Assembly (NCBI GenBank): GCA_903889795.1
Contig: CAISYW010000004.1
Location: 1-35,317 of the forward strand
DNA: 35,317 nt
Direction of reading: 5' to 3'
Origin: an uncultured Chlamydiae bacterium
GTDB lineage: Bacteria; Chlamydiota; Chlamydiia; Chlamydiales; SM23-39
The notes below the pieces were generated by a model that made no database searches, had not been told where the DNA came from, and saw only the letters and a list, made by a program, of their open reading frames with translations. Position 1 is the first letter of the stretch, and every line of letters starts with the position of its first letter. Below, in pieces: positions 5,477-22,388 of the stretch. The translations under genes were made by a program, and so were the position numbers.

Positions 5477-5494
5477 AAAACGAACAACGAGTTT

Positions 5495-5782: not shown

Positions 5783-5998
5783 TTAAGATTTGTCAGAAGG
5801 CGGCTCTGAATCTGTGGGAGGAGCTTTTTGTTCAGTAAAGAACCGGGATTTAAAGAGATGAGACAAACCTTTTACTTTGGTTTGATCTTCAATTTTACGG
5901 GCAGACATGCCCTTATGGCTCAACTTGGCCTCACAGCACTTCTTAAATTTTTTACCTGATCCGCAAGGACAGGGATCATTGCGTCCAACTTTTTCCAT
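5783..5998 (-). CDS. SEC-C motif (zinc-binding) small protein
   Basis: [22 protein letters not shown]. Start moved to ATG 5998 because the upstream extension overlaps ttcA. Confidence 0.88.
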
Positions 5999-6060
5999 AT
6001 ATTTTCTTAATTTGTAGTAGTTCAATATTATAACATATTTTCTTCCGAATTGTCCATTCC

Positions 6061-6091
6061 TATTGACCTTGAGGGTCAATAACGGTAAAAT
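6061..6091 (+). promoter_or_regulatory. Sigma66/sigma70-type promoter of ttcA with overlapping palindrome
   Basis: TTGACC (6063-6068), 17 nt, TAAAAT (6086-6091). Inverted repeat TATTGACC-N5-GGTCAATA at 6061-6081. Confidence 0.6.
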
Positions 6092-6114
6092 ACATGCATT
6101 CAAAGATTTACGAT

Positions 6115-6867: not shown

Positions 6868-7826
6868 AAAAAATATTCCACTTCAAAGATCGAAGAAAAT
6901 GCCGACCACCGCGCCTGAATTGCAGCCTTTTGCTTATTCGACGAATTCACCAAAACCGGAAAAACTTGCCTGATTTCCTGTCTATATTTCGTCTTCTTTT
7001 TTTTCGTAGCGAAGCGGTAGAGATCCCAGCGCCAATTCACTCTCCATGCCTCAGCCACCTGAGCCTTGATTTTTCCACAAAAGGATTGTCCCTGAAGAGC
7101 GTTGAAATCAGCCTTATTCTCCGCTTTCGTGAAAAACTCTGAAGTCGGTCCCGGATTGAGATAAATCAAATGCTGCTCGAAGCCAAATTTTTGCTTGAAT
7201 TGGAGAAAGTAATAATAATAACCCGCTTCAAATGACCATGCTTGGAGCATCTGATAAACTAAACGGCCTCCGGCCAGAGGCCCCCACCATTGACGCTGCA
7301 AGGCAAAATGAGACAAATCACACGACAAGATTGCTTGAGCGGGGATTGTGAGCGATTCGGGTTGATTGACCTTGCGGTTGATATGCTGATAAAAAACACT
7401 ATAGCCTATTTCCGGAATAATTTTGAAACCGCCTCTGCGATCCGTAAAATCAAAAATAAAGCCAACGTTCTGCTTGCCATCAGCCAAAAAACCACCGACA
7501 TTTTGCCTGAACGAACTGCGATAGAGCGGATCCGGGGAAATTCCCATCATACAAGTATCATGCGTACGACCCGATACAAACCAACCTACATCCGCATAAC
7601 TCGAAAACAGAAAACCCGACAACTTCAAGTCCAAATATCCATCGAGAATGACCGACTTGAGATCTCGATCCCGTTCCTTATAAATAAGGCTTTTATCTTG
7701 AGCCATCGAAAAAAGCATCTGATCATTTCGATAGCCAATACCGAATCCGAGGTTAAACCCATTTTTTTGAGCCGCCCCGACCGTAGCACCAAGCAGAATA
7801 AAAAAAAGACCAATCAATTGTTTCAT
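6864..7826 (-). CDS. Outer-membrane beta-barrel protein
   Basis: Signal peptide MKQLIGLFFILLGATVGA, amphipathic strands, and C-terminal FEVEYFF (aromatic terminal BAM signal). Confidence 0.72.
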   Translation of the reverse strand: MKQLIGLFFILLGATVGAAQKNGFNLGFGIGYRNDQMLFSMAQDKSLIYKERDRDLKSVILDGYLDLKLSGFLFSSYADVGWFVSGRTHDTCMMGISPDPLYRSSFRQNVGGFLADGKQNVGFIFDFTDRRGGFKIIPEIGYSVFYQHINRKVNQPESLTIPAQAILSCDLSHFALQRQWWGPLAGGRLVYQMLQAWSFEAGYYYYFLQFKQKFGFEQHLIYLNPGPTSEFFTKAENKADFNALQGQSFCGKIKAQVAEAWRVNWRWDLYRFATKKKKTKYRQEIRQVFPVLVNSSNKQKAAIQARWSAFSSIFEVEYFF

Positions 7827-7902
7827 AGACCAAAAATGTACTTGAACGGCTCTTTTTCTTCATTGAGAGAATTCATCAAAGGAGGTATAAAAATAGAACC
7901 TT

Positions 7903-9336
7903 ATGCTTGAAATCACGACATTAATTGTCTATTTCTCTCTTCTTTTGGCCGTTGCTTTTTTTTCATATCAAAAACAGCGGTCCGATACCGATTTCGTGAT
8001 CGGCAACCGCTCGATGAATTTTTGGCTAACCGCCCTCTCCGCTCATGCGAGCGATATGAGCAGTTGGCTCTTCCTCGGCTACCCTGCCATGATTTTTACC
8101 AACGGACTCATTGGTGCTTGGGCAGCCATCGGACTGACTTTTTTCATGTTTCTCAATTGGCATTTTATTGCCCCGCGTATCCGCACCGCTACCGAGCAAT
8201 TCAATAGCGTAACAATCAACGCCTATTTCGAAAGCCGTTTTGCCGATCGCTCCGGATCAATCCGTCTCATTTCCGCCGTCATGTCCATTCTTTTCTTTAC
8301 TATCTATATCTCATCCGGACTAGTTGCCTTAGGCGTTCTCGTTGAATCGCTGTTCAACATGCCCTATACGATCGGAATCTCCATCGGCCTTTTAATCGTC
8401 GTCGTCTATGTTTTTATGGGTGGATATCGCACAATTGCCTGGATCGACGTCTTTCAAGGCTTTTTTCTCTTGGCTGTAATCGTATTTATTCCCACGATTT
8501 TGCTTATGCAAATCGGAGGAATTCACCCCGTAATGAATGCCGCTGCAGCTCAAAAACTCTCAACGTCGCTTTTCCCCGACTTCAGCGGCCGCACATTGCT
8601 ATACATTATTCTCACAGCTGCAGGCTGGGGCCTAGGATATTTTGGCCAACCTCAGATCATCACCAAGTTCATGGGCATTCGCCATGTAAGTGAGATGAAC
8701 AAAGCCAAATGGCTCGGAATCAGCTGGCAATTTACCGCACTGACCGCCGCGACTCTCGTTGGTCTCATCGGCATCTACTTTTTCCCTTCCGGTCTCGATG
8801 ATCCCCAGCGAGTTATTTTAAATATCGTGCAAACGACCTTGCCTGCTTTTTTTGCCGTGTTGGTGCTCTGCGCAATCTTGGCTGCCTCAACCAACGTCAT
8901 GGCCGCTCAAATTCTCGTCGTCGCCTCCAATCTATCAGAAGATTTTTACAAAAGAATTCTTCGAAAAGAAGCGACTCCATCCGAACTGCTGCGGGTATCG
9001 AGGATCAGTGTTTTGATTATTGCTGTGATTGCTTTTGTCATCGCCTATTTCAAAATCTCTACGATCTATCGTCTCGTTCTTTACTCTTGGTCCGGCCTTG
9101 GCGCTTCGTTTGGTCCCCTTCTTTTGCTTTCCCTCTATCGAAAATCGATCAACCGATATGGCGCCTTCGTGGGAATACTCGTCGGCGGCTTAACCGCAGC
9201 GATCTGGCCTTATGTCGAAAATTTCTATCACTGGGAAACCCCCAGCTCACTCGTTGCGGGTTTCATTTTGAGTCTTTTCTCGATTGAGATTGTCTCTTAC
9301 TTCACACGTCAAAGAACAACAATAAAAAACAATTAA
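7903..9336 (+). CDS. putP: Sodium/proline symporter (SSS family)
   Basis: ALSAHASDMSSWLFLGYP, WGLGYFGQPQI and SWSGLGASFGP motifs, with many TM helices. Confidence 0.92.
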   Translation: MLEITTLIVYFSLLLAVAFFSYQKQRSDTDFVIGNRSMNFWLTALSAHASDMSSWLFLGYPAMIFTNGLIGAWAAIGLTFFMFLNWHFIAPRIRTATEQFNSVTINAYFESRFADRSGSIRLISAVMSILFFTIYISSGLVALGVLVESLFNMPYTIGISIGLLIVVVYVFMGGYRTIAWIDVFQGFFLLAVIVFIPTILLMQIGGIHPVMNAAAAQKLSTSLFPDFSGRTLLYIILTAAGWGLGYFGQPQIITKFMGIRHVSEMNKAKWLGISWQFTALTAATLVGLIGIYFFPSGLDDPQRVILNIVQTTLPAFFAVLVLCAILAASTNVMAAQILVVASNLSEDFYKRILRKEATPSELLRVSRISVLIIAVIAFVIAYFKISTIYRLVLYSWSGLGASFGPLLLLSLYRKSINRYGAFVGILVGGLTAAIWPYVENFYHWETPSSLVAGFILSLFSIEIVSYFTRQRTTIKNN

Positions 9337-9346
9337 ATGGACCATT

Positions 9347-10171
9347 ATGACGCGCCCTTTCATCCTCATCACCAATGACGACGGAATTCAAGCACTAGGT
9401 ATTAAACATCTGTGGCACGCGATTCGCGATTTCGCTGACGTAGCCATCGTTGCTCCCTATTCGGAAAAATCGGGCAGCAGCATCTCCTTTACCTGGACCA
9501 AACCTCTCGACATCAGCGAATATGCCTGGGAAGACGCCACACCCGCTTGGACTGTCAATGACGGCACCCCTGCCGATTGTGTAAAAATGGCTATGAGCGT
9601 ACTGCTAACCCGGCGTCCCCATCTCATCGTATCCGGAGTCAATCGTGGCTCGAATGCCGGACGAACCGTTCTGTATAGCGGGACCATTGGAGGCGTAATA
9701 GAAGGAGTGATGCGCAATATTCCGGGGATCGCCTTTTCGTTTTCAGACACCAACTTCCCCGCATTAGGCACTGCCAAATCCACCATTTCTGCCATTGTCA
9801 AACACTTTTTAGCTTCTCCCCTCCCCTTCGGATCGTTTATGAATGTAAACTTTCCCTCTAAATTCGAACAAGGCGTTAAAGGCATTCGGATGGCTCGGCA
9901 AGGCCGCAGTTATTGGATTGAAAATCCCGATAAACGCCGTCATCCCGGCGGGAGCACTTATTATTGGCTCGGAGGTCAATGGGAAAAGCATGAAGAAGCC
10001 ACCGACAGCGACATCGCTTTACTACAGCAAGGTTATGTCACCATTGCGCCCATTCATGTCGGCGATCTCACAGATCAACAACTTCTGCAAAAACACAGCG
10101 ACTCGATCCAACAGATTGTTCCATGTTGTAAGACAGATGTTGAGGAAAAAGATCTTTTCAGCCTAAAATAA
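9347..10171 (+). CDS. surE: 5'/3'-nucleotidase SurE
   Basis: ILITNDDGI, GTPADCV, VSGVNRGSNAG and YSGTIG motifs. Confidence 0.95.
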   Translation: MTRPFILITNDDGIQALGIKHLWHAIRDFADVAIVAPYSEKSGSSISFTWTKPLDISEYAWEDATPAWTVNDGTPADCVKMAMSVLLTRRPHLIVSGVNRGSNAGRTVLYSGTIGGVIEGVMRNIPGIAFSFSDTNFPALGTAKSTISAIVKHFLASPLPFGSFMNVNFPSKFEQGVKGIRMARQGRSYWIENPDKRRHPGGSTYYWLGGQWEKHEEATDSDIALLQQGYVTIAPIHVGDLTDQQLLQKHSDSIQQIVPCCKTDVEEKDLFSLK

Positions 10172-10201
10172 TCTCACGTTTTTGGACGATCTCGTCCTTG
10201 A

Positions 10202-10274
10202 GGGCGTATAGCTCAGTTGGTAGAGCTCCTGTCTTACACACAGGTGGTCATAGGTTCGAGTCCTTTTGCGCCCA
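10202..10274 (+). tRNA. tRNA-Val(TAC)
   Basis: GGGCGTATAGCTCAGTTGGTAGAGC-CCTGTCTTACACACAGG-GGTTCGAGTCC-TGCGCCCA. Confidence 0.96.
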
Positions 10275-10286
10275 AAGTTTTTTTTT

Positions 10287-10360
10287 GCGGGAGTAGCTCA
10301 ATTGGTTAGAGCGCCGCCCTGTCACGGCGGAGGTTGCGGGTTCGAGCCCCGTCTCTCGCG
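10287..10360 (+). tRNA. tRNA-Asp(GTC)
   Basis: GCGGGAGTAGCTCAATTGGTTAGAGCGCCGCCCTGTCACGGCGGAGGTTGCGGGTTCGAGCCCCGTCTCTCGCG. Confidence 0.97.
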
Positions 10361-10611
10361 TTTTTCATAACGCTACATTACGATTTATTTTGTTGAAAAC
10401 GATGAAAGGTTTTGACGAGCAAATAATTTAATATTTGAACGAATTACCTAACTGGTTAATCAAGAATAAATTGAATCATCAAAAACCCCCAAAAAAAATC
10501 GACATGGCAACGAAAAACATGTTGTAAATCTGTGCTTGAACAGATTTTTTTCATATAAAGTCGTAAACGTTTTCTTTTACTAAATTTTTCTTTTGGTTAT
10601 TTCAAGGATAT

Positions 10612-11532
10612 ATGACTGATAAATTTTCGCCTTCCCGATCGCTAGTTCACTATCTGATCAGCTTCTGCGGAATTACGCTAGGAGCTTTGTTAGCTGCGCT
10701 CGCCATCCGCATTTTTTTAATCCCAAACGAATTAATTGACGGAGGCGTCATTGGTATCGCATTGATCCTCGGTCGATTATTTGGCAATTCCTACCTCTCC
10801 TATTTTCTGATCGCCTTAAATATTCCATTTTTGTTTCTTGCCTGGCGCTACATACGGCGTTCGTTTGTTATTTACATGCTGGTCGCCACTATTATTTTTG
10901 CCCTCTTTTTGTCAATCTTGCAGAAGATTCCCACCTTTGCAGCGGACCCCCTTGAAGCAATCGTGATTGGCGGCGTAATGCTAGGCGCCGGAGCAGGCCT
11001 TATTATCCGCAATGGCGGCTGCACGGATGGCACAGAAATTCTCGCCATTATTATCAACCGCAAAAAAGGGTTCACGGTTGGACAGGTCGTTCTTTTCATT
11101 AATATTTTCATCTTCTCAGCCTATGGCTGGATTTTTCACGACTGGCACATTGCCCTCCGCTCTCTGATGACCTATATCGTTGCGTTTAAAATGATCGATA
11201 TCGTGATCGCAGGACTCGAAGAACTCAAGTCCGTACTCATCATGTGTTCGCATCCGGAAAAACTGAGTAAAATCATCACCCATGAGCTAGGGTTAGGCCT
11301 CACCTTCATAAAAGGTAAGGGCGGATACTCAGGCGAAGACCGCGATATTTTATTTATCATCGTCGAGCGACTCGATTTGGCTGAATTAAAAGAAATTGTC
11401 CTAAGAGAAGACCCTTCGGCTTTTATGGCGATCGAAAACTTGCATGAAGTCGCCTACGGACGAACGGCCCGCATCGCCTTAAGCCGCAAAGCACGCAGCA
11501 GCTTTACGAAAAGACTGATTGGGAAAAGATAA
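10612..11532 (+). CDS. YitT family membrane protein (DUF161/DUF2179)
   Basis: FLIPNELIDGGVIGIA, GGCTDGTEILA, GKGGYSG and EDPSAFM motifs. Confidence 0.9.
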   Translation: MTDKFSPSRSLVHYLISFCGITLGALLAALAIRIFLIPNELIDGGVIGIALILGRLFGNSYLSYFLIALNIPFLFLAWRYIRRSFVIYMLVATIIFALFLSILQKIPTFAADPLEAIVIGGVMLGAGAGLIIRNGGCTDGTEILAIIINRKKGFTVGQVVLFINIFIFSAYGWIFHDWHIALRSLMTYIVAFKMIDIVIAGLEELKSVLIMCSHPEKLSKIITHELGLGLTFIKGKGGYSGEDRDILFIIVERLDLAELKEIVLREDPSAFMAIENLHEVAYGRTARIALSRKARSSFTKRLIGKR

Positions 11533-11560
11533 TAAAGGAGACGCTGAATAAGTGCTGTTT

Positions 11561-11675
11561 TGAAGATCGAGAGCGATTTTCGTAGTGAGATTGAGTTTGG
11601 AGCACGACGCTAACTTCTTGCAAGTTAGCAGAGTGCGAAAACTCGATCGGAACAGAAAACTCGCCTCGAGATTCA
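11561..11675. repeat. Long imperfect intergenic hairpin (RPE/MITE-like)
   Basis: Nested pairs tgaa/ttca, tcgag/ctcga, gcga/tcgc, gagttt/aaactc, gcac/gtgc around core gctaactt-cttgc-aagttagc (11609-11629). Confidence 0.65.
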
Positions 11676-11678
11676 TTC

Positions 11679-12419
11679 ATGACTTATTCAGCGTTTCCTG
11701 AAAGAGACGCCTACATGATTGATGATGACGAATACGCCCAAGAACATATGAAGCCTCATAAGAGAATTCATTCTCTCGATTCCTGGCGTATTTTCCGCAT
11801 CATGTCGGAATTTGTCGACGGCTTTGAAACGATGACCTTTCTCGGTCCTTCCGTTGCCATTTTCGGATCAACCAACCCCAATCCCATAAATCCCCATTAT
11901 TATGAACTGACCACTCAACTGGCAGAAAAAATTGTCAAGAAAGGCTTTGCTATAATTACGGGCGGCGGCCCGGGTATCATGGAATGCGCAAATAAGGGGG
12001 CGCAAATGGGGGGCGGCAAATCATGCGGTCTCTGCATTAACCTTCCCAGCGAGGGAAAGCAAAATCCCTATATCGACCCCAAATATAAACTCGAGTTTCG
12101 CTATTTTTTCGTTCGAAAAGTAATGTTTGTTCGTTATGCGCAAGCCTTTGTCGTAATGCCGGGCGGCTTTGGCACTCTCGACGAACTCTTCGAAGCCCTG
12201 ACTCTCATTCAAACGGGCAAAATCAAATATTTTCCGGTTTATCTTGTCGGCAAAGATTATTGGAAAGGTCTTCTCGATTGGCTTCGCAATACGGTAATGG
12301 AGAATAATAACATTAAAAAAATTGATTTCGATCTCATTCGCCTTTCCGACGATCCCGATGAAATTGCCGAAGGCATTGAAAAGCACTACAGACAGACAAA
12401 GTCGATCGAAAACTTTTAA
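11679..12419 (+). CDS. LOG family nucleotide monophosphate nucleosidase-like protein (TIGR00730 type)
   Basis: ITGGGPGIME, FRYFFVRKVMFV and MPGGFGTLDELFEALTL motifs. Confidence 0.92.
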   Translation: MTYSAFPERDAYMIDDDEYAQEHMKPHKRIHSLDSWRIFRIMSEFVDGFETMTFLGPSVAIFGSTNPNPINPHYYELTTQLAEKIVKKGFAIITGGGPGIMECANKGAQMGGGKSCGLCINLPSEGKQNPYIDPKYKLEFRYFFVRKVMFVRYAQAFVVMPGGFGTLDELFEALTLIQTGKIKYFPVYLVGKDYWKGLLDWLRNTVMENNNIKKIDFDLIRLSDDPDEIAEGIEKHYRQTKSIENF

Positions 12420-12476
12420 CCCCAAATCCGATTTTTCAAGCAGCTTGTATATACAGCCGTAGAAATATTTACTTAT

Positions 12477-12644
12477 GGAGTTGTCAAACAATAAGTTAAA
12501 GCATTACAAGGCCATTATACCGGATCATTTTTCACATGTTCTTGCGCAGAAGATATTGAACAAGAATATCTTCTACGCAAGAACATGTGAAACCTGAACC
12601 AGTCTAAGACCTTTTAATGCTATAACTTATTATTTGACATCTCC
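12477..12644. repeat. 168-bp imperfect palindrome
   Basis: Outer arms ggagttgtcaaacaataagttaaagcatta / taatgctataacttattatttgacatctcc (3 mismatches). Inner arms 12530-12557 / 12565-12592 (27/28) with a 7-nt loop. Confidence 0.92.
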
Positions 12645-12741
12645 TAACTCGTCTTATCCATACCATATACTTTTTAATTTAAATTACAAAAAAAACCCAA
12701 AAAAACTTATTATGTTCCACCTTTACAGCTAACGCAAAAAC

Positions 12742-14040
12742 ATGACATTAAAAAATGTTATCTTCAAGGATCCTCAGGTTGGATATTGCATAGCAAATCT
12801 AAGTATTGCTGAAGGCCGTATTCAAAAAATCGAGATACTTGATCGTTCGTTAAAAGATTTAAGCCAGGTTGATTTTTACGTCACACCGGGATTTGTTAAT
12901 TCTCATTTACACCCCAATCAACTCCTCGACCGACGATTGCTGGATGAGCTGAATATCTCCCAGCTTATTGACTGCATGCATGGGGATTACAAAAAAACTG
13001 ATCAGATACGTTATGCGCAAGCCGTTTTTGTTTTGATGGATGCAATCAAATCCGGGACCACATCTATTTATGCGGTAGCCAGCAATCCTTATCCTGTAAT
13101 CGATGCTTTCAAGAAATTACGAATAAAAGGCGCAGTGGCTTGTTTTTATAACGACCGATGGGAAGGCTTCGGAACACCCCCGGCTCTTTCTTTGCTTCAT
13201 GCCATCGAAGAGCAATTCAAGCAGGTCGTCAAAGAGAAAAACGAGCGTTTTGCGATTCACATCGGTTCCGCCTCTGTAGAGAGCGCTTCTAACGAATTAT
13301 TAGTCTTGATGGATCGCTTGGCAAAAGACTTTGCAAGTAAAGTCAATATTCATGTGTGCGAAGGGTGGGATTCTGTCCGCTCCTGCATGAATTCGCGGCA
13401 ACTTTCGCCGATTCATTTATTATCGCAGTTAAATGTTTTAGGTTCGCACTGGAACTTAATTCATGCTGCATCGCTTAATCCGGAAGAAATTGCTCTTATT
13501 GCTAAACATCAAGCGTCCGTTATTCATTGCCCTGTCAGCAATGCCAAAACCGGCGTTGGTATAGCACCCGTAATCGAGTTGATGAATCGAGGCGTCAGAA
13601 TTGGACTGGGAACCGATGCCTGCAGCAACAACAACACGAACAACATCCTCAACGAAGCCTATTTTGCCTCATTGATTCATGCGGCTGATCAACAAAATGC
13701 CAAGGCGCTCTCAGTTGAGACCCTAATGCAATGGATAACAACCCGGGGTCACGAAATTATCGGGACAGGTCAACAAGGAACCATTTCTGTTGGAGAACCC
13801 GCAGATTTGCTGCTCTGGTCACTTCATGAAAATTCCTTCGTGCCTCTCGCTTATGGCAAATTCGATGCGGCGCTGATCTATAATGCTCCCGATCTAAAAC
13901 CTCATACAGTGATAATTGATGGAGTCATCGTCGTTGAAAATTATACGTTTACACTACTTTCTGAGAAAGAAATCAGAGAAGAAGCCAATCAATGTGGCTT
14001 TAATATGCAAACATTTATGAACGGAAATATCTGCAAATGA
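12742..14040 (+). CDS. Amidohydrolase-superfamily metal-dependent deaminase (COG0402, MTA/SAH-, cytosine- or guanine-deaminase-like)
   Basis: PGFVNSHLH (HxH), IHVCE (HxxE), LIHA, HCPVSNAK, GLGTDA and GEPADL motifs. Confidence 0.88.
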   Translation: MTLKNVIFKDPQVGYCIANLSIAEGRIQKIEILDRSLKDLSQVDFYVTPGFVNSHLHPNQLLDRRLLDELNISQLIDCMHGDYKKTDQIRYAQAVFVLMDAIKSGTTSIYAVASNPYPVIDAFKKLRIKGAVACFYNDRWEGFGTPPALSLLHAIEEQFKQVVKEKNERFAIHIGSASVESASNELLVLMDRLAKDFASKVNIHVCEGWDSVRSCMNSRQLSPIHLLSQLNVLGSHWNLIHAASLNPEEIALIAKHQASVIHCPVSNAKTGVGIAPVIELMNRGVRIGLGTDACSNNNTNNILNEAYFASLIHAADQQNAKALSVETLMQWITTRGHEIIGTGQQGTISVGEPADLLLWSLHENSFVPLAYGKFDAALIYNAPDLKPHTVIIDGVIVVENYTFTLLSEKEIREEANQCGFNMQTFMNGNICK

Positions 14041-14597
14041 GTCAAAAAACACAGAGAAAGCTCGCGCTCTTAGGTAATACAGGAGTCGGCAAAGACACCT
14101 TTGTAAGGATTTTTCAAAAGCGATATGCATATCTTTCGATGCATTTGATTAAGTTGGCAACGCCGCTCTATGAGGGGCAAAATGCGATCTATGAGCTTTG
14201 CGGCAGAAAAATTGAACGGGAAGTTCAAGATGGAATTCTATTAAACTTTTTAGGGAATCACATGCGCCGCATCAATCCCGATGTGATCAAAGAGTGCTTT
14301 TTAAGAGACCTACATAAAAAAGGGCAAGAACCTGACTTAATCATCTGTCATGACACTCGTCCTCTTGATGTGTCCTTTGTCAGAGATGCGGGATTTTTTG
14401 TTTTGAATATTGCATCGGATTCAGAAATTGCCTTAGAACGCCGGAAAGCGCGCGGAGATTTATCCTTAGGGTCATCCGATCATCATACTGAAAAAGGGCT
14501 CTCAAGCGAGCTGTATGATGCACAGATTTTAAACAACGGAACTTTAGAAGACTTCGAACAAAAGATTGTAAAATTCATAGATGGGTGGTTTCTATGA
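14037..14597 (+). CDS. P-loop nucleotide monophosphate kinase (dNMP kinase-like)
   Basis: Walker A GNTGVGKDT, LATPLY, LLNFLG..MR, HDTR, HHTE and ILNNGTLEDF. ATGA overlap with the upstream gene. Confidence 0.78.
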   Translation: MSQKTQRKLALLGNTGVGKDTFVRIFQKRYAYLSMHLIKLATPLYEGQNAIYELCGRKIEREVQDGILLNFLGNHMRRINPDVIKECFLRDLHKKGQEPDLIICHDTRPLDVSFVRDAGFFVLNIASDSEIALERRKARGDLSLGSSDHHTEKGLSSELYDAQILNNGTLEDFEQKIVKFIDGWFL

Positions 14598-15139
14598 TTC
14601 TCACTGGTCAAGAAATAAAAAAACAAGTAGCTCTCAAGCGAATTCATATATCGCCTTTTATAAAAAACAACATCAATCCGAATAGCTACAATTATTGTTT
14701 GGCTTCAGAATTGCTCGAAATTATCGATAATCCCATCGACCCCAAGTCTGAGCAGCAATTTCGCAAAATTCAGATATCGGAAGAAGGGTATGTTCTTCAA
14801 CCGGGCCATCTTTATCTTGGCAGTACAATGGAAGAAATCGGCAGCGATTATTACGTCACAAGCTTGATTGGACGCTCATCCGTTGGAAGATTGGGAATAT
14901 TTGTACAAATTACCGCAGATTTAGGGCATCTGGGCGCCAAGCACCGCTGGACTCTTGAACTTAAAGTTGTACAACCGGTGATTTGTTATCCCGGAATGAA
15001 AATCGGCCAGGTCAGTTTCTGGAGCGTTAAAGGAGAAACGAAGCAGCTTTACCAAGGTAAATATGCTGAATATTCAAGTGCGCACCGCAGCGAAATCCAT
15101 CGAGAACTATCCTTAACAACAAATGAGATAACACTATGA
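14594..15139 (+). CDS. dcd: dCTP deaminase/dUTPase-fold protein, paralog A (Glu retained, motif Asp replaced by His)
   Basis: MILTG, INPNSYN, GRSSVGRLG, TADLGHLG, WTLE, YPGMKIGQ and YQGKY. Start set at ATG 14594 (ATGA overlap). Confidence 0.82.
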   Translation: MILTGQEIKKQVALKRIHISPFIKNNINPNSYNYCLASELLEIIDNPIDPKSEQQFRKIQISEEGYVLQPGHLYLGSTMEEIGSDYYVTSLIGRSSVGRLGIFVQITADLGHLGAKHRWTLELKVVQPVICYPGMKIGQVSFWSVKGETKQLYQGKYAEYSSAHRSEIHRELSLTTNEITL

Positions 15140-15651
15140 TCCTTAGTGGAATGAAAATTCAAGAGAAGGTTTTTTCAAACGAAATCACAATTGATCCATT
15201 TTTTCCTTCTCAAATCAACCCCAACTCCTACAACTTTCGACTTGGAAAGACGTTAAAAGTCTATGACGATGAAATCCTCGACCCGAAAAAAGAAAATAAG
15301 ACACGATTAATTGAGATTCCGTCGGAAGGATATCTTTTAGAGCCGACGAAACTTTATTTGGGTCACACCGAAGAGATCATGGGGAGCAATCTCTATGTTC
15401 CAATTATTCGCGGACGTTCTTCAATCGGCCGAATTGGCCTTTTTATCCACATTACCGCCGATTTGATCGATATAGGCTCAATTAATCAATGGACTTTGCA
15501 AATGCATTGCGTTCAGCCTTTACGAGTTTATTCCGGTATGTTAATAGGTCAGGTAACTTTCTGGACGGTGGAAGGCGAAATCAAGCTTTATAACGGAAAA
15601 TATCAAGGAAGCCGCGGACCAATGTCTTCGCAAATCCACCAAGATTTTTGA
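15136..15651 (+). CDS. dcd: dCTP deaminase/dUTPase-fold protein, paralog B (Asp retained, Glu replaced by Gln)
   Basis: MILSG, INPNSYNFRL, GRSSIGRIG, TADLIDIG, WTLQ and YNGKYQG. ATGA overlap. Confidence 0.82.
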   Translation: MILSGMKIQEKVFSNEITIDPFFPSQINPNSYNFRLGKTLKVYDDEILDPKKENKTRLIEIPSEGYLLEPTKLYLGHTEEIMGSNLYVPIIRGRSSIGRIGLFIHITADLIDIGSINQWTLQMHCVQPLRVYSGMLIGQVTFWTVEGEIKLYNGKYQGSRGPMSSQIHQDF

Positions 15652-15700
15652 CTGATTAATCAAAGGAAAAAAAGAAAACAAACAGAAGGGGATTAACAAC

Positions 15701-17206
15701 GTGGAGAAAGTAAACACTTTAGAAGACCAACAAACATCCAAATTTGGTAAGTGGCGTCAGCGCCTTTGGCCTGTACACGCCAGTGAGTCGAAAAAGTTTT
15801 TCCCTCTCTTGCTAATGAAATTGTGTATTTCATTCGTTTATACGATTTTATTAGCAACAAAAGACACCCTGATCGTCACATCGAAGGGTTCCGGAGCAGA
15901 GACAATTCCTATTTTAAAGGGTGGTTTCGTTCTCCTTTTTGCTTGTATTTTCATGATCATATATTCGAAATTAAGCAATCATCTATCGAAAAGCCGCCTT
16001 TTTTATGCGACTTTATTGCCATTTATTTGTTTTTTTGCGTTCTATGGATTTTTTCTTTATCCCAATCGCGAATGGCTTTTGCCTCATCAAACAGCTGACA
16101 AGCTTATTTCACTGATTGGGCCAGAACGCGCTCATTGGGTTGCCGTTTACCGCTACTGGATGGACTCGATATTTTTCTTGATGGCAGAACTGTGGGGCGG
16201 AGTCGTCATTGCATTATCCTTTTGGGGGTTGGCTAACCGCATCAACAACCTCAACGAAGCCTCACGATTTTATTCTTTGCTTTCCGCAGGAGGACATGTC
16301 GGGGTGATTATCGCCGGCCCGCTAATCTGGCATTTTTCCCATGCGTCTGATCACTTTGCTTTCACGATTCAATGGCTGATGGGAATCGTGTCAGGAGTAG
16401 GATTGCTGATACTATTTATTTATTGGTGGATCAATCGAAATATTATTCAAACACAAGAACATTTGGGACAAAAAAGAGCAAATGAACCAACTAAATTATC
16501 CCTCATTGACAGCCTCAAACATCTCATACGTTCGCCAAGCTTAAACTATATTGCCCTAATGGTCATCGGCTATAGTCTTTCTGTGAATATGATCGAAGTG
16601 GTTTGGAAAGCTGCCTTAAAAATTCAGTATCCGAATCCGCAAGACTACGAAGCCTTCATGGGGCTTCTAACCATGATTACCGGATGCGTGTCCCTGTTTA
16701 TTGCTCTCTTTGTCGGGGGTAATGTAATCCGTAAATTCGGTTGGTTCGTCGCCGCACAGGCTACCCCCGTTGTACTTGGATGTGCCTCGCTTCTTTTTTT
16801 AGGAGTTTATTTTTCAAATGACATATGGAATACCTCAACCGTATTTATGGGTGTAGGGGCTCTTACGCTACTCGTATTCATCGGAGCAATGCATAACGTT
16901 TCTTGCAAATCGATGAAGTATTGTCTCTTTGATCCCACAAGAGAGATGGCCTATATTCCTTTAGACGATGAAACCAAAGTTAAAGGAAAAGCGGCAGTCG
17001 ATGTCGTTGCTTCACGTTTTGGAAAATCCGGCTCTTCCTGGCTACAAGTGGTTTTTATGGAAATCGTAGGTACCGGTTCGATATTCGGCGTAGTGCCCTA
17101 TCTGGCGCCGTTCATACTCGTAGCCGTCGTTGGCTGGATCATTGCAATCTTTTATCTGCAGCGTCAAATCAATCAAAAATTGATCGTTTCAGCCGAAAAC
17201 GCGTAG
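15701..17206 (+). CDS. NTT/Tlc (ATP/ADP translocase family) nucleotide transporter, divergent paralog
   Basis: FGKWRQRLWPVH, TKDTLIVT, AELWG, FWGLAN and KYCLFDPTREMAYIPLD..KVKGKAAVDVVASRFGKSG motifs. GTG start. Confidence 0.93.
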   Translation: MEKVNTLEDQQTSKFGKWRQRLWPVHASESKKFFPLLLMKLCISFVYTILLATKDTLIVTSKGSGAETIPILKGGFVLLFACIFMIIYSKLSNHLSKSRLFYATLLPFICFFAFYGFFLYPNREWLLPHQTADKLISLIGPERAHWVAVYRYWMDSIFFLMAELWGGVVIALSFWGLANRINNLNEASRFYSLLSAGGHVGVIIAGPLIWHFSHASDHFAFTIQWLMGIVSGVGLLILFIYWWINRNIIQTQEHLGQKRANEPTKLSLIDSLKHLIRSPSLNYIALMVIGYSLSVNMIEVVWKAALKIQYPNPQDYEAFMGLLTMITGCVSLFIALFVGGNVIRKFGWFVAAQATPVVLGCASLLFLGVYFSNDIWNTSTVFMGVGALTLLVFIGAMHNVSCKSMKYCLFDPTREMAYIPLDDETKVKGKAAVDVVASRFGKSGSSWLQVVFMEIVGTGSIFGVVPYLAPFILVAVVGWIIAIFYLQRQINQKLIVSAENA

Positions 17207-17212
17207 AGCTTT

Positions 17213-17247
17213 ATTTCGCTGTCATTAAGTTATGATGACAGCGAAAT
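17213..17247. terminator. Probable bidirectional terminator hairpin
   Basis: Perfect 13-bp stem atttcgctgtcat / atgacagcgaaat, 6 nt after the NTT stop, between convergent genes. Confidence 0.7.
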
Positions 17248-17322
17248 TACCCCCTTAAACGGCTTTGTTGTATAAATAGCACCACAGAGATAGAAACCAC
17301 AGAGAAAGAACCCTCCATCAAA

Positions 17323-18732
17323 CTACATTTTTTTGAAAAAACCCAAATCCCTGAAAAGGGATAAATCATCCATGATGATTGTGAAAATAGAATACAATGC
17401 TGCATAAACTTTATTCAAACTCTTAAAATCAATGAATTTGAATATCTCAGTATAACTAAATACTTCAAGCGGAATGCAAAGCAAATTTAAAGCTAAGTTA
17501 ACAATGCCCATAAACTTAGAAAATTCCTGCGCAGCAATGCTTGTTTTAAAACATTGTTGAACTTTTGCTTGAAGGACTGCATTATTTTTTTCTGTTAATA
17601 GCTTCTCATCAACACCAAAACGATTCGCAATCAAACGTTTTTTGACTAATTTTTCTTCCATGCGTTTTTCAATTTTCGACTGAAAATGCCGGCATTTTTC
17701 GCAAATTTTTATTTTTTGCTCTTCAGTAACATTGACCAACCGCTCAATAAACCTTCGCGATGCTTTTTGTTTTTCGCGTAGGTTCAATTTTTCATTTTTC
17801 ACAATTCCTTCCTCAAAAAGACGTTGGTGTTTTTCGATGCTCTGTATGGTTTTAAAATTCGTCGACAGACTAACGAGCGAATCAGCCGTATAAGCGCCGT
17901 AATTTAATGAATATTTCAAAATACTAAAAACCAGAGCCACTATAAAACACACAATCAACAGTGGAGAAAAAGCAAAAAGTATAATTCCAAGAATCAACCC
18001 TAAAACTCCTTCAACAACAACAATCAATGCATTGATTATTTGCTTCTTAAAGATAGCGATCCCATCGACATCATGAACACTCTTAGCTTCTCGATATTGT
18101 TTAATCGATTGGGCCGTTTTGGTAATTCCCAATAAAATAGATAAGCACCCTTGAATCATTTGAAAAACTGCGATGCTGACGCCAAGAACCGAACTCAAAG
18201 TCGCAACCAAACAGGATATCCCCACAAGAGTCATCGCGAATTGTGCGAGACCGCATGATTTGCGAAAAGTGCCAATCACAGTAGACATTCGTTTCGCATG
18301 CTTTAGTACATTTTTCGTTAAAGGCGCTATCGGTTTAGGCGATGCAGATATAGCTTCTGACGTCCGACTAATTGATCGACCGATCAGTGAGCAGAATCGA
18401 TCCCAATATGAATGTTTTATCAAATTCAAATGAGCGGCATGCTCTTGAAGTTCTTTGATTGCGCTTCGTAGTTTTTCTGCCGTTTTTCCTTCAATCTGCC
18501 GATCTTTTCGGTTGGCTTCCTGGATAACCACCGATTTTGAGCCCGGTGTAAACCAAAGTTTTTTTTCTCCGACCTGGACACTATGACCGTTAATTTTAAT
18601 CGATAGAGAAGGTTTAAATTCGACAGCCCGATCTCCCGCCGATTCAAAAAAACACGATAAAGAATCTTCTGTTTTATTTTGAATCAAACTGGAATATTTA
18701 CAATGATGTAGCGGAAAACAAATACCCAGCAT
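17323..18732 (-). CDS. Multi-hydrophobic-segment protein, paralog 1 of 3 (Inc/T3SS-substrate-like)
   Basis: Shares IKINGH.VQVGEK..WF, IQGCLS, HDVDG, YTADS and IAAQE motifs with the two neighbouring ORFs. Long hydrophobic stretches separated by Lys/Glu-rich helices. Confidence 0.75.
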   Translation of the reverse strand: MLGICFPLHHCKYSSLIQNKTEDSLSCFFESAGDRAVEFKPSLSIKINGHSVQVGEKKLWFTPGSKSVVIQEANRKDRQIEGKTAEKLRSAIKELQEHAAHLNLIKHSYWDRFCSLIGRSISRTSEAISASPKPIAPLTKNVLKHAKRMSTVIGTFRKSCGLAQFAMTLVGISCLVATLSSVLGVSIAVFQMIQGCLSILLGITKTAQSIKQYREAKSVHDVDGIAIFKKQIINALIVVVEGVLGLILGIILFAFSPLLIVCFIVALVFSILKYSLNYGAYTADSLVSLSTNFKTIQSIEKHQRLFEEGIVKNEKLNLREKQKASRRFIERLVNVTEEQKIKICEKCRHFQSKIEKRMEEKLVKKRLIANRFGVDEKLLTEKNNAVLQAKVQQCFKTSIAAQEFSKFMGIVNLALNLLCIPLEVFSYTEIFKFIDFKSLNKVYAALYSIFTIIMDDLSLFRDLGFFKKM

Positions 18733-18855: not shown

Positions 18856-20637
18856 TTATTGGTACTCTTTTTTCAGAAACTTGCTCAAAAAAATTTGCCG
18901 CATCGAAAAGATTTTTTGCCCCAACGTAGGATGAAAACCAGCTGAATGAGTTATTTGATACCAACGACTTTTCTCGTGAACCTTGCGCTGACTCTTTTCA
19001 AAGAATTTTGTAAACCTGCCCAGGATATGTTCACAGAAGAAAAGAAAGTTGATCAGTATCCAACCACCGTCATTCTGTCCAACCAAAACTTTTCTCGGCA
19101 ACCCCATCTGTACGACATTACAGAAATTCTTTGCTTCGCTATTGGAAACGCCCGCTATCGAAAGTCCGGTTGGTATATCAATTAATAGACCCGATCCGAT
19201 AAGTGCCAGGCAAAGAATATTCAGAAATCTCGAAGCATCCTGTTGTGCAATATGATGTTCAAAACATTTTAAAACATTTTGAACGAGTTGATTATTTGGA
19301 TCTTTGAGAACTGCCTCCATTTTTTTCCGACCGAAACCAAAGGTTCTTTTCAGATCCCCCCGTTTTTTACCGAGTTTTTGCTGGATGCGCAGTCGAATCA
19401 GCTCTTCAATATTATCAAGTTCCGAAGGTAAAAGAGTCTCGCGATCGACTTTAGTACGGAATTTTGCAATTACTTTTTCGCGTATTTTCGCTTTTTCAAC
19501 CCCGGAAACTTCTTGAAATCTTCTCAGAAATCCCTTCGTAGCAGCTGTCATCTGCTCAGGGGTTAATCCACTATTATTCAAAATGTTGTGCAATAAATAA
19601 AGATGATGCTTATCAACAGACCGCAAGATTTTGTTCGCGAGGTGAATCTCAAGGGATGAATCGGCTGTGAACAAACCATAAACCAATATCCACGACAAAA
19701 TGGTATATGCAAGAGAAAGAGCGATTCCACCGGCAAGAAGCTGGGGACATGATAAAAACAAAATCCCAAGAGTAATCCAAAAAACACCCGTTAGTATGTT
19801 AACGAAGGCTATTCCTATCTTCAGACGTGCAATCTCCATTCCGGCGACATCGTGATTTTTCAGGCATTTATTATATGCCTTCACAGCCATATGAAGTTTG
19901 TAGATACCACGCACTAACGATGCGCATCCCTGCAAGATCCGAAATCCTGCGATGATCGATCCAAAGAGATACGCCGCATTCAGAACAGTGTGACCCGCGA
20001 TTGTCATCGTCTCCAAAAACCAGGGTGAAGACACAAGCGTTCCGATCACTTGAATTAGATCGAGCAGATTTCGAATCACGCCAACAGCGTCAATTCCAAT
20101 AATTGCGATCAAAAACATAATTGTTGAAAGATTTTTTTTAGCCCAAACCCTAATTTTATTAGCACCAATTTGGAGTCGCGTTTCCGGCTTTGAAACCGTC
20201 TCAGATGTCGAGGAAAGGATCATTTCAGAAATGCTTCCGATCAATGCTTTTGCACCCCATGCGACAGCATCGATCGCATTCCCGTAAGACTGCAACGCAG
20301 ACATTTCTCTCTTCATTACCTCTAAATCCGATGCATGCGCAGAAATTGCTTTAACAGCGTCTCGTACTGTTTTTGATTCTTTTTTAGAAAGAGGGGTTCC
20401 AACAACTTTTCCGTTTTCATAAAACTGGGGTTCACTGAGAACATTCTTGCTGTCCGAGTCAAACCAAAAAGCTTTTTCTCCAACGTCGACCCTATGCCCG
20501 GTAATTCTCATTTTTAGCGAAGTGTTCTGAGATAAATCAACCCCCAAAAATTGGCACAATGCATCTACCTTTGTATTCATCGGAGAAGAATACGACACAT
20601 GGCGCAAAGGGAAAGAGTACGTTTCTATAGTTGGCAT
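18856..20637 (-). CDS. Multi-hydrophobic-segment protein, paralog 2 of 3
   Basis: MPTIETYSFPLR, ITGHRVDVGEKAFWFD, IAGFRILQGC, KNHDVAG, CPQ, YGLFTADS and IAQQDA motifs. Confidence 0.8.
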   Translation of the reverse strand: MPTIETYSFPLRHVSYSSPMNTKVDALCQFLGVDLSQNTSLKMRITGHRVDVGEKAFWFDSDSKNVLSEPQFYENGKVVGTPLSKKESKTVRDAVKAISAHASDLEVMKREMSALQSYGNAIDAVAWGAKALIGSISEMILSSTSETVSKPETRLQIGANKIRVWAKKNLSTIMFLIAIIGIDAVGVIRNLLDLIQVIGTLVSSPWFLETMTIAGHTVLNAAYLFGSIIAGFRILQGCASLVRGIYKLHMAVKAYNKCLKNHDVAGMEIARLKIGIAFVNILTGVFWITLGILFLSCPQLLAGGIALSLAYTILSWILVYGLFTADSSLEIHLANKILRSVDKHHLYLLHNILNNSGLTPEQMTAATKGFLRRFQEVSGVEKAKIREKVIAKFRTKVDRETLLPSELDNIEELIRLRIQQKLGKKRGDLKRTFGFGRKKMEAVLKDPNNQLVQNVLKCFEHHIAQQDASRFLNILCLALIGSGLLIDIPTGLSIAGVSNSEAKNFCNVVQMGLPRKVLVGQNDGGWILINFLFFCEHILGRFTKFFEKSQRKVHEKSRWYQITHSAGFHPTLGQKIFSMRQIFLSKFLKKEYQ

Positions 20638-20714: not shown

Positions 20715-22388
20715 TTATATTGATTTACTATTAATAGCTTTAATGTCATGAGTCTGCGCCCACCAGCGAGTCTCTCGATGAGGCTTGGGCCCAATCTTTT
20801 GAAGCAAGCGCGTAACCCAGCTTAGAGTGGGAATATCTTCGCCAAGGTAGAAGCCGTTCACATTTATCCAGCCAAAATCATTCGTAACGCCCCAAGCACC
20901 CTCACCCATCCCCAAAGGCAAAATACTGCAGATGCTCTTCACAATCCCCACAGAATCAATTTTAAGAAGGTGTGCAATAACAGGGAAATCGCACTGAATA
21001 CCCAGAATATTCACAGCTAGGCAAATAATGGCCAGCAATCTCTGAGCATCCTGTTGAGCGATCGTTGTTTCAAATGATTTTAGAACTTGGTCAACAGGAG
21101 CGGATGATTTGAGAATCTCCCCAATCGTGGTAAGATTGAGCCCTAATGTCCTGTCCACATCGGCTCTTTTTTTATCGCGTTTATTTGCAATACGCCGTTC
21201 AATCTCTGATGGCAAAGGCTTATGTCCGAGCTTATTATTGAGTTTTTCGATCGCTTTGGCTTTGTCTTTTTCAGAAACCTCCGAGATTCTTTGGAGAAAC
21301 CGTTTTGTTGCATCGTTCATTTGCTTAAGACTTAAATGTTTGTTATTCAGAATTTCTTTGAAAAAATACAAATAATGCTTATCAATAACCTGCATGGTTT
21401 TGTTGACTATTTTCAACGAATTGACTGAATCTGCGGTGAATAATCCATAAAATAAAATCCATTGCGCCACGGTAAAGACGATAGCCACAGCAGTTCCGAC
21501 AACCATTGCTTGAGGACATGTTAACATCAGAACTCCAAGAGATACCCAGAAAAGCCCCGTTAAGATCGAAACCACAGCACCATTTCTCTGCGCTTTTGCT
21601 ATCTCCAAACCAACTGCATCGTGATTTTTTTCACACCGTTCGATGGCTTTGAGCGCGAGATGAAGTTTAGCGATACCGACTACTAGCGATATGCAGCCTT
21701 GAATAATCCTAAATCCTGCGATCCATTGGCCTAAAACAAGAGCCGCCTTCAAAACCTCCTGCCCCGCGATGAGAACGGTCTCTTGAAACCAGGGTGAGAA
21801 CACTGTAAGCGTTCCGATAACCAAGACCAAATCGATCAGATTTCGAATAACTCCAATTATATCGGATAAAGGAAAGAGAATCGTAAGTACTTTTTGAGCG
21901 AGAATATCAATTTTATTTGCCCGCTGTTGAGCGCAAGATATGGGTTCCGGTTTTGATATTTCGGGAGATATCAATTTACAGCTTCGTCCGATTAATGCTC
22001 GGACGCCGCTTGTTGCGGTGCAAATCAAATTCCCGCAAGCCTGTAGAACAGACTCTTCTTTCTTCATTAACCCTAAATCGGAGGCATGATCAGAGATTGC
22101 CTTGACGGCGCTTCGAATTGTTTTAGATTCTTTATCAGATAGAACTGCACCAACGACCTTGCCATTGGCTTTAAATCGAGGCTGGCAAAAAACCCTCTTG
22201 GTATCCGGATCAAACCAAAAAAATTTTTCACCAATCTCAACCTGATGTCCGGATATTTTAATTTTTACAGAGGGATCTTGAACCAAACCTTTCGGTAAAA
22301 ATTGACTTAACGCATCGGCCTTCGTTTGCAGGAAGGGAGAATAAGAAGCACCACGTAAAGGAAAAGAGTAAGTCTCAATAGTAGACAT
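20715..22388 (-). CDS. Multi-hydrophobic-segment protein, paralog 3 of 3
   Basis: MSTIETYSFPLR, ISGHQVEIGEKFFWFD, IAGFRIIQGC, KNHDAVG, CPQ, YGLFTADS and IAQQDA motifs. Confidence 0.8.
   Translation of the reverse strand: MSTIETYSFPLRGASYSPFLQTKADALSQFLPKGLVQDPSVKIKISGHQVEIGEKFFWFDPDTKRVFCQPRFKANGKVVGAVLSDKESKTIRSAVKAISDHASDLGLMKKEESVLQACGNLICTATSGVRALIGRSCKLISPEISKPEPISCAQQRANKIDILAQKVLTILFPLSDIIGVIRNLIDLVLVIGTLTVFSPWFQETVLIAGQEVLKAALVLGQWIAGFRIIQGCISLVVGIAKLHLALKAIERCEKNHDAVGLEIAKAQRNGAVVSILTGLFWVSLGVLMLTCPQAMVVGTAVAIVFTVAQWILFYGLFTADSVNSLKIVNKTMQVIDKHYLYFFKEILNNKHLSLKQMNDATKRFLQRISEVSEKDKAKAIEKLNNKLGHKPLPSEIERRIANKRDKKRADVDRTLGLNLTTIGEILKSSAPVDQVLKSFETTIAQQDAQRLLAIICLAVNILGIQCDFPVIAHLLKIDSVGIVKSICSILPLGMGEGAWGVTNDFGWINVNGFYLGEDIPTLSWVTRLLQKIGPKPHRETRWWAQTHDIKAINSKSI

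Follow-up and report, generated by a model that had tools for sequence, protein, structure and literature searches.

Enzymes of the dCTP deaminase (Dcd) and dUTPase (Dut) superfamily are textbook homotrimers with three identical intersubunit sites. Each active site lies between protomers, one chain giving motif III (the base and sugar pocket, with an Asp and a Glu) and its neighbor giving motif II, and in dUTPases an aromatic residue after the motif III Asp packs on the deoxyribose and excludes ribose. The closest described systems are the bifunctional dCTP deaminase:dUTPases (Dcd:Dut), which are homotrimers or homohexamers with the Asp and the Glu in every chain, and the monofunctional dCTP deaminases, such as Escherichia coli Dcd (PDB 1xs1); we take Ser111, Arg115, and Glu138 to be the deamination residues of Dcd. 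Further comparisons are offered by fused proteins with several Dcd domains in one chain, including the two-domain Agrobacterium protein titled "2'-deoxycytidine 5'-triphosphate deaminase" (2r9q, PF06559), by the single-chain or pseudo-heterotrimeric dUTPases of some viruses and animals, and by the anti-phage dCTP deaminase, in which an N-terminal kinase domain is fused in one chain to a deaminase with a canonical site. According to two papers, homotrimeric architecture is common to the superfamily, and replacement of the motif III Asp by Asn nearly abolishes dUTPase catalysis and leaves binding unaffected (PMC4827122; PMC5519681, in which the efficiency of a D83N dUTPase is 0.0002). Here we describe two adjacent Dcd-fold genes, DcdA and DcdB, that have lost complementary catalytic residues. 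They lie in the window, by which we mean the whole stretch of 35,317 nucleotides analyzed (contig CAISYW010000004.1 of assembly GCA_903889795.1, from an uncultured Chlamydiae bacterium).

DcdA and DcdB find their best matches among the bifunctional enzymes, both in sequence (phmmer E 1e-13 to 1e-18) and in structure (TMq up to 0.93), and share with them their length, motif II (GxSSxGRxG), the IGQ motif, and, in DcdB, a KYQGxRGPxxS C-terminal lid; the overall reaction proposed below for DcdA and DcdB together would also be the same. However, unlike the bifunctional enzymes, the pair divides the catalytic residues between two genes, and the aromatic residue is gone. The monofunctional deaminases (E. 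coli Dcd; the TIGR02274 model) share the fold and, with DcdA, the Ser, Arg, and Glu deamination residues, but E. coli Dcd presumably keeps, unlike either protein, both the Asp and a Trp at the position three residues after it (Asp+3). With three fused relatives described below (P0244, P0245, and P0322), the pair has in common unlike protomers, complementary loss of catalytic motifs, and sites at particular interfaces only; in the fused proteins, however, the loss is of motif II in one domain and motif III in another within one polypeptide, whereas DcdA and DcdB are separate gene products that both keep motif II and are split within motif III. The anti-phage enzyme likewise combines a nucleotide kinase with a Dcd fold and is patchily distributed, but DcdA and DcdB have no match to its model ("dCTPase" in PADLOC). 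Judged by residues and profiles, neither protein would strictly be a bifunctional Dcd:Dut, a dUTPase, or a member of the anti-phage model. The literature on dCTP deaminase that we searched, to which Dcd mechanism papers in subscription journals did not belong, gave no account of such paired proteins.

Catalytic residues of DcdA and DcdB

Both genes lie on the + strand. DcdA (14594-15139) encodes 181 amino acids from its ATG; an alternative GTG start lies 9 nucleotides upstream, at 14585, and the homologs begin MILTG. DcdB (15136-15651) encodes 171 amino acids, and its start overlaps the DcdA stop by 4 nucleotides. Both products match Pfam DCD PF22769 above its cut-off of 27 (DcdA, 118.4 bits, E 4e-34; DcdB, 129.4 bits, E 1.6e-37), and they are 48% identical to each other. 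The sequence-only reading, made from the letters and their translations, had claimed that both proteins retain GRSSxGRxG, and motif II is indeed intact in each: GRSSVGRLG in DcdA (residues 93-101, 14870-14896) and GRSSIGRIG in DcdB (residues 93-101, 15412-15438). Residues G93, R94, S95, G98, R99, L100, and G101 are invariant in the A-family alignment and R92, S95, R99, and G101 in the B-family alignment, and the motif II Ser and Arg (GxSSxxRxG) are nearly invariant across both.

The difference between the two proteins lies in the motif III region, which comprises residues 107-122 in each and which the sequence-only reading had placed, correctly to the base, at 14912-14959 in DcdA (TADLGHLGAKHRWTLE) and at 15454-15501 in DcdB (TADLIDIGSINQWTLQ). 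DcdA has His112 for the Asp and Ala115 for the aromatic residue and keeps Glu122; DcdB keeps Asp112 and has Ser115 for the aromatic residue and Gln122 for the catalytic Glu. This division, and the absence of the aromatic residue from both chains, were among the claims made beforehand and can be read directly from the translations. The combination of Asp and Glu in one chain that characterizes the bifunctional enzymes is present in neither DcdA (His112/Glu122) nor DcdB (Asp112/Gln122). In phmmer alignments to solved chains, "ghlga..wtle" of DcdA and "idigs..wtlq" of DcdB align, with high posterior marks, with "idpgf..itle" of the Mycobacterium tuberculosis enzyme, "vdpgf..itle" of the Bacillus halodurans enzyme, and "idagf..itle" of the Methanocaldococcus jannaschii enzyme. 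Because of these alignments, we take the substituted positions to be the homologous Asp, aromatic, and Glu sites, and the earlier claim that they are the catalytic ones stands. PDB titles call the aligned Glu E145 in M. jannaschii and E138 in E. coli, and the residue at Asp+3 is Phe in the solved relatives 2qxx, 4xjc, and 1ogh. The engineered E145Q variant in PDB 3gf0 reads "tlq," as DcdB does; it mimics DcdB at this one position only.

Profiles and models place both proteins within the Dcd fold. DcdB, without the catalytic Glu, passes the dCTP deaminase equivalog TIGR02274 (96.9 against a cut-off of 92.8), and DcdA, with it, falls short (83.0). Neither matches the trimeric dUTPase family PF00692 at E 0.01; DcdB has a weak match to the archaeal-type dUTPase model PRK02253 (22.8 bits; cut-off 130), and DcdA has no such match. 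AlphaFold2 models have a predicted local distance difference test score (pLDDT) of 85 for DcdA and 92.5 for DcdB. By Foldseek, the solved structures nearest to both proteins belong to the bifunctional enzymes of M. tuberculosis, B. halodurans, and M. jannaschii, and TMq to solved Dcd and Dcd:Dut chains is 0.89-0.93 for DcdB and 0.70-0.76 for DcdA.

Conservation and pairing of the two families

Word-based searches at E ≤1e-5 returned 1413 cluster representatives for DcdA and 1781 for DcdB, cross-hits between the families included, and residues were counted in the best 120 of each list. In the DcdA list, the motif III Asp position holds His (69), Gln (28), or Asn (23) and never Asp (0/120), and the Glu position holds Glu in 120/120. 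In the DcdB list, Asp is present in 120/120, and the Glu position holds Gln (105) or Met (15) and never Glu (0/120). An aromatic residue stands at Asp+3 in 0/120 DcdA homologs and 1/120 DcdB homologs, and not one of the 240 chains has Asp and Glu together. This residue pattern is far above chance. The B alignment is the more conserved of the two (mean column identity of 63%, against 56% for A), and the segment LIDIG is almost invariant in it.

The two genes travel together. In 79 of the best 80 loci, among the 355 species with a relative of B, tblastn shows an A-type gene directly upstream of the B gene, and the 4-nucleotide overlap of stop and start codons seen here recurs in 21 loci. In a census of 79 loci based on open reading frames (ORFs), from which L049 was left out, all 73 A motifs that could be read had Glu plus His, Gln, or Asn, and all 76 B motifs that could be read had Asp plus Gln or Met. 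The six unread A motifs comprise ORF-calling failures (L023, L026, and L042), variant spellings (L045 and L052), and a truncated A in a metagenome-assembled genome (MAG; L056), and the three unread B motifs are regular-expression or start-site misses. The split of the sequence-only reading (His/Glu and Asp/Gln), with Gln or Asn also at the A site and Met also at the B site, is kept in all homologous pairs examined.

Relatives of B were found in 355 of 185,579 species (one genome per species), and an exhaustive HMMER search with B gave 238 representatives of 50%-identity clusters at E ≤1e-30. Hosts of the pair include Chlamydiota, Saccharibacteria and other groups of the Candidate Phyla Radiation (CPR), actinomycetes, Paenibacillus, clostridia, Holosporaceae and other alphaproteobacteria, Verrucomicrobiota, Nitrospirota, and cyanobacteria, among others. 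In a FastTree phylogeny of 156 rows, rooted on this genome's own canonical Dcd and built without L023, L026, L042, L056, and L083, B forms one clade (support of 97), as does A but for one long-branch row. The ratio of nonsynonymous to synonymous substitution rates (dN/dS) was estimated by the Nei-Gojobori method on 75 locus pairs with B proteins at least 78% identical; where dS was below 1, it was 0.007-0.30 for A and 0-0.27 for B. The relatives of the window's own pair are saturated at synonymous sites, with dN of 0.16-0.40, which points in the same direction. Both genes are under purifying selection. Decay of either paralog, which the sequence-only reading had also considered, is ruled out by the dN/dS values (0-0.30) and the conservation counts. 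A further possibility that it had raised, that both proteins are ordinary dCTP deaminases by themselves, is argued against by the residues. A phage origin of the pair is likewise ruled out: a tblastn search of 50,697 phage records with B found just six Dcd matches, all distant (29-35% identity). We propose that DcdA and DcdB belong to an ancient, always paired, and horizontally mobile system.

We also note two variations on the arrangement. First, a sister subfamily has an A' protein reading SAPLGH..WTLE and a B' protein reading SA.LGDIG..WTLQ, and in it a B-like protein is fused to PPDK_N ATP-binding and PEP-utilizer mobile domains (P0241, P0242, P0246-P0248, L083 at 7770-10487, and L080). 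Second, some loci carry a third Dcd-fold gene after B with a canonical-looking motif III (IID..Y..LE), which makes three different tandem paralogs (L014 at 8531-9097, L029 at 8531-9088, L046 at 8528-9091, L048 at 8549-9127, and L056 at 8801-9388); these loci often have a PurM-like gene upstream.

Proposed reaction, assembly, and alternatives

Each paralog retains one half of the catalytic pair of the bifunctional enzymes. We propose, with a confidence that falls a little short of an even chance, the simplest reading, that DcdA and DcdB would together make up a two-protein dCTP deaminase:dUTPase in which DcdA deaminates and DcdB hydrolyzes. The sites with motif III from DcdA (Glu, no Asp) would convert a cytosine nucleoside triphosphate (NTP) to the uracil NTP, and those with motif III from DcdB (the water-activating Asp, with Gln or Met for Glu) would hydrolyze the uracil NTP to the monophosphate and pyrophosphate. 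Both proteins supply the phosphate-binding motif II, and the sites would be completed between chains, more probably of mixed trimers than of separate homotrimers. Together with KIN, a deoxynucleoside monophosphate (dNMP) kinase-like protein encoded directly upstream, the net reaction would be (d)CMP/(d)CTP to (d)UMP. Phosphotransferase genes recur near the pair (dNMP-kinase-like in 25/79 loci, on the same strand and within 3.5 kb; PurM/ThiL-like in 7/79), which fits an enzyme needing its substrate raised to the triphosphate level. Ribonucleotides may be accepted too, because both proteins have lost the aromatic packing on deoxyribose. Of the sequence-only interpretation, which had offered division of labor, a mixed trimer, or altered sugar or base specificity, the complementary loss of catalytic sites stands and proves to be conserved; the roles offered are not mutually exclusive, and division of labor fits the residues.

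DcdA and DcdB probably form a mixed trimer, an estimate that we make mainly because of their strict adjacency, their overlapping stop and start codons, and the fused relatives. The latter were met as the top two matches of the exhaustive search, P0244 (532 amino acids) and P0245 (549 amino acids), which have three DCD domains per chain, and as the two-domain protein P0322 (347 amino acids). In P0244 and P0245, domain 1 has motif III (G-D..F..WTLE) with the C-terminal lid but has lost GRSS, domain 2 has neither motif, and domain 3 keeps GRSSxGR with both Asp and Glu gone. In P0322, domain 1 has motif II only and domain 2 has motif III only, with a His/Glu site as in DcdA. Each of these proteins has one complete active site per covalent pseudo-trimer. 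They are more distant than A and B proper (about 35-39% identity). Heteromeric designs therefore exist in the superfamily, with motif II and motif III of one site coming from different protomers. Because both DcdA and DcdB keep motif II, the donor of motif III would set the chemistry of each site, whether in A3 and B3 particles or in mixed ones.

A predicted complex of DcdA and DcdB points the same way, but weakly. It scored 0.45 against 0.00 for the best control, which is graded as weak support, with contact agreement of at least 97% between runs and a partner pLDDT of at least 89. When the tool was calibrated, 116 of 157 solved complexes attained this mark, as did 2 of 215 mismatched pairs; scores of 0.60 or less comprised only 18 of the 157 solved complexes and both passing mismatches. 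Given the solved homotrimers, the pass may reflect likeness of fold alone. A mirror-tree comparison of A and B distances gave r = 0.60, which is expected of adjacent genes and is no evidence of binding.

Several observations weigh against the two-protein deaminase:dUTPase. First, the Asp is kept in monofunctional Dcd too, and its loss in DcdA might impair sugar binding, beyond hydrolysis alone. Second, both families have invariant new residues on the pocket side, Lys-His-x-Trp in A and Asn-Gln-Trp in B, and these, with the Met in 15/120 B proteins, could mean that the pocket has changed, perhaps along with the substrate. Third, in a complete 0.9-Mb WWE3 genome (G002, locus L047) the A-B pair are the sole members of the Dcd/Dut superfamily. 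Ribonucleotide reductase is present in this complete genome, in which we found no ThyA, ThyX, Dut, CTP synthase, CDA-fold deaminase, or orotidine monophosphate decarboxylase. Without ThyA or ThyX, the pair there cannot feed thymidylate synthase, and a general housekeeping route to thymidylate is ruled out as the role of the pair; C-to-U conversion or clean-up of dUTP is a possible role in WWE3. The conserved loss of the aromatic residue, taken with a WWE3 genome without thymidylate synthase, suggests an altered sugar specificity. Fourth, pair loci in actinomycetes and Firmicutes resemble nucleoside-antibiotic gene clusters, and STAND-type NTPases stand beside the cassette in unrelated genomes: NB-ARC/AAA_16 with TPR, one caspase, and one nSTAND1 with an FGE-sulfatase (L005 at 583-4806(-), L019 at 26-5649(+), L007 at 2432-4675(+), L048 at 3844-6393(+), and L076 at 3160-6198(+)). 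The physiological role of the pair clearly varies among hosts. Finally, the evidence for association has its own exceptions. One locus (L026) has B and a kinase and no adjoining A; among longer proteins, a word-based search returned only B-like/PPDK_N fusions and an unrelated 596-amino-acid protein and no fusion of A to B, which counts weakly; and sequential metabolic steps would by themselves also explain co-inheritance, so that pairing is no proof of a mixed trimer.

An alternative that we consider unlikely is an obligate mixed trimer with a single kind of catalytic site, in which the A sites deaminate and DcdB is a silent subunit that gives motif II and the lid and may bind regulatory dTTP or dUTP. 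The fused relatives, reduced to one complete site per pseudo-trimer, provide a precedent for it, and P0322, which retains just an A-like His/Glu site, suggests that this type of site suffices. B retains motif II and the IGQ motif, together with a lid at its C terminus very close to that of the M. tuberculosis enzyme, and Met replaces the Glu in 15/120 B proteins. However, the Asp in 120/120 B proteins and the almost invariant LIDIG are hard to explain for such a site, and B is more conserved than A.

It is similarly doubtful that the pair acts not on dCTP but on CTP, UTP, or an NTP modified in base or sugar, to supply or tailor precursors of antibiotics or glycoconjugates. The aromatic residue that is missing from both proteins presumably gates deoxyribose, and the WWE3 genome cannot put dUMP to use in making thymidylate. 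Methyltransferase, HAD, or PPDK_N domains are fused to relatives, and several neighborhoods are suggestive. On Streptomyces plasmids, the neighbors are MurA-like, metallophosphoesterase, TauD dioxygenase, PIG-L, WbqC, and GT4 genes, as well as genes for an aminoacyl-tRNA synthetase-related protein, a MurG-like protein, HIT, a radical S-adenosylmethionine (SAM) protein, and LD-carboxypeptidase; in Paenibacillus and Clostridium, they encode a methyltransferase, a metallophosphoesterase, an alanyl-tRNA synthetase-like protein, an ATP-grasp protein, and an exporter; and in CPR genomes they are GT4, sugar nucleotidyltransferase, Nudix, and HIT genes. Nevertheless, the upstream kinase belongs to a deoxynucleotide kinase family, the remaining cytosine-recognizing residues (Ser, Arg, and Glu) are canonical, and the neighborhoods are heterogeneous: apart from A and B themselves, no partner exceeds 25/79 loci. 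A more elaborate version, which we regard as speculative, combines these elements. In it, an obligate mixed trimer with two unlike types of site would serve as a portable C-to-U converter without deoxyribose gating, acting on ribo- or modified NTPs (e.g. CTP to UMP) and served by interchangeable kinases (T4-type dNMP kinase, PurM-like, or PPDK-like) in nucleoside-antibiotic clusters, in CPR sugar-nucleotide loci, and, here, in a nucleotide-parasitism island with an NTT importer.

It is very improbable that the pair is an anti-phage or conflict module, one that would deplete deoxycytidine nucleotides upon infection as do the kinase-fused defense dCTP deaminases. Such a module would share their kinase-plus-deaminase logic, and KIN has a weak match to the kinase portion of the dCTPase model in PADLOC (E 0.0066, 13.3 bits). 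The spread of the pair is patchy and suggestive of horizontal gene transfer (355/185,579 species and 3/300 genomes of the phylum), the STAND-type genes described above adjoin the cassette as STAND/NB-ARC-TPR, caspase-STAND, or nSTAND1-FGE in L005, L007, L019, L048, and L076, toxin-antitoxin genes flank L046, and some neighbors match GT4-conflict. Against this, NB-ARC-TPR and XRE-TPR proteins also serve as ordinary regulators in actinomycete gene clusters, the pair was not found among the phage records, where the six Dcd matches have at most 35% identity, and its neighbors in MAGs of Holosporaceae and rumen alphaproteobacteria are housekeeping genes (lpxB, fabA, clpX, lon, and lnt). Within the window, no defense gene adjoins the block. 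A known defense system is ruled out, as neither DcdA nor DcdB has any PADLOC match at E 0.01, including to dCTPase PDLC02373.

Least credible of all is ordinary redundancy between two recently duplicated dcd genes drifting toward pseudogenes, which could appeal to the dCTP deaminase names of both genes in public records, the passing NCBIfam dCTP_deam score of B, and a separate canonical dcd beside ruvB in this genome, but which conflicts with an identity of just 48%, separate ancient clades across many phyla, family-specific invariant substitutions, and dN/dS of 0-0.30.

The five-gene block and its host genome

The assembly that contains the window comprises 1.57 Mb in 202 contigs and is 83% complete, and the contig is chlamydia-like by its neighboring genes (a Protochlamydia outer membrane protein, SurE, YitT, a LOG-type protein, and other housekeeping genes). 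DcdA and DcdB are the last two genes of a tight + strand run of four, in which an amidohydrolase gene (12742-14040) comes first, KIN (14037-14597) second, and each junction overlaps by 4 nucleotides; a TLC/NTT-family nucleotide transporter gene follows at 15701-17206 (+), after a 50-nucleotide gap 3' of DcdB. The amidohydrolase-fold, deaminase-like product of the first gene belongs to the group of TRZ/ATZ, SsnA, and methylthioadenosine/S-adenosylhomocysteine/guanine deaminases (Pfam Amidohydro_1, E 2.8e-37). All its NCBIfam matches are far under their cut-offs, and its best solved relatives are unnamed amidohydrolases, atrazine chlorohydrolase, and methylthioadenosine/S-adenosylhomocysteine deaminase. 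KIN is a P-loop protein that matches Pfam DNMK PF21448 in its C-terminal part only (29.4 bits; cut-off 27.1) and PHROG 139, "deoxynucleoside monophosphate kinase," over residues 1-181 (E 7.5e-18). By these matches KIN is a putative T4-type dNMP kinase; a structure search with it gave no close or informative solved relative. The transporter matches Pfam TLC (E 1.2e-151) and TIGR00769 (458.9 bits). A perfect 13-nucleotide inverted repeat at 17213-17247 (+), directly after the transporter stop, is a likely terminator of the operon. A promoter and terminator scan of the operon gave counts at chance level and was not used.

The block as a whole (about 4.9 kb, 12420-17322, +) is absent from a genome of the same genus, G178. 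On contig C26 of that genome, SurE, two tRNAs, YitT, and LOG are collinear with window positions 9347-12418 (72-90% DNA identity), LOG is followed directly by a homolog of the window ORF at 17323-18732(-) (28% identity, E 2e-48, full length), and collinearity resumes from window position 22516. The segment 12420-17322 is therefore an insertion or deletion between congeners. At E 1e-40, DcdB has three matches among 300 scored genomes of the phylum, its own genome included; the other two are 46-47% identical, and the same-genus genome has no match at this threshold. At the left edge of the block, in the 323-nucleotide gap between LOG and the amidohydrolase gene, lies a long inverted repeat (12515-12607; 43-nucleotide arms, 86% complementary, 7-nucleotide loop), which might serve as a terminator or operator or be the scar of an insertion. 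At the right edge, an element of 30-48 nucleotides at about 17265-17313 is matched at 87-100% identity across many contigs, both here and in the same-genus genome, and is a dispersed intergenic repeat.

The cassette of amidohydrolase, kinase, A, and B is shared by four other Chlamydiota MAGs and by one from the Verrucomicrobiota. The amidohydrolase gene lies 5' of KIN-A-B on the same strand in L005, L007, and L019 and nearby on the opposite strand in L006 and L008, and the cassette in these MAGs adjoins genes for MFS transporters or for nucleoside phosphorylase and phosphomutase. No TLC gene lies near the pair in the other 79 loci. In the host genome itself, the TLC matches score 707, 623, and 506 bits, the window's transporter being the lowest. 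The separate canonical dcd lies beside ruvB on contig C82 (L002, 1222-2055); it reads FEPEW..TLE, with Glu rather than Asp at the motif III position and the aromatic residue kept. We found no dut, thyA, thyX, or class I or II ribonucleotide reductase gene in the 83%-complete assembly.

Other genes of the window were noted in passing. The product of the ORF at 17323-18732(-) and that of its positional ortholog in the same-genus genome (L089, 2202-3644(-)) are membrane proteins that are 28% identical over their full length, and this gene appears to evolve very fast compared with neighbors at 72-90% DNA identity. Three large ORFs are without a Pfam match (18856-20637(-), 593 amino acids; 20715-22388(-), 557 amino acids; and 28219-30183(-), 654 amino acids), and the same-genus genome shows no match to the first two at the DNA level.

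The kinase, the amidohydrolase-type deaminase, and the additional transporter suggest that the pair came here in a five-gene block that would import and convert host pyrimidine nucleotides, and we infer that the conversion of imported pyrimidine nucleotides would be its most economical role in this organism. Should our proposal of a two-protein deaminase:dUTPase be true, the pair would be a natural system that separates deamination from triphosphate hydrolysis, by subfunctionalization within one active-site motif. Public records label A and B alike "dCTP deaminase" (e.g. the plasmid loci L085 and L086), and this shared label therefore amounts to a systematic misannotation of the family. The pyrimidine pathways drawn for reduced genomes (CPR, Holosporaceae, and chlamydiae) may be wrong where the pair is the only family member. 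In the present genome, the pair with its transporter, kinase, and second deaminase provides a testable hypothesis on how an intracellular bacterium may convert imported host nucleotides.

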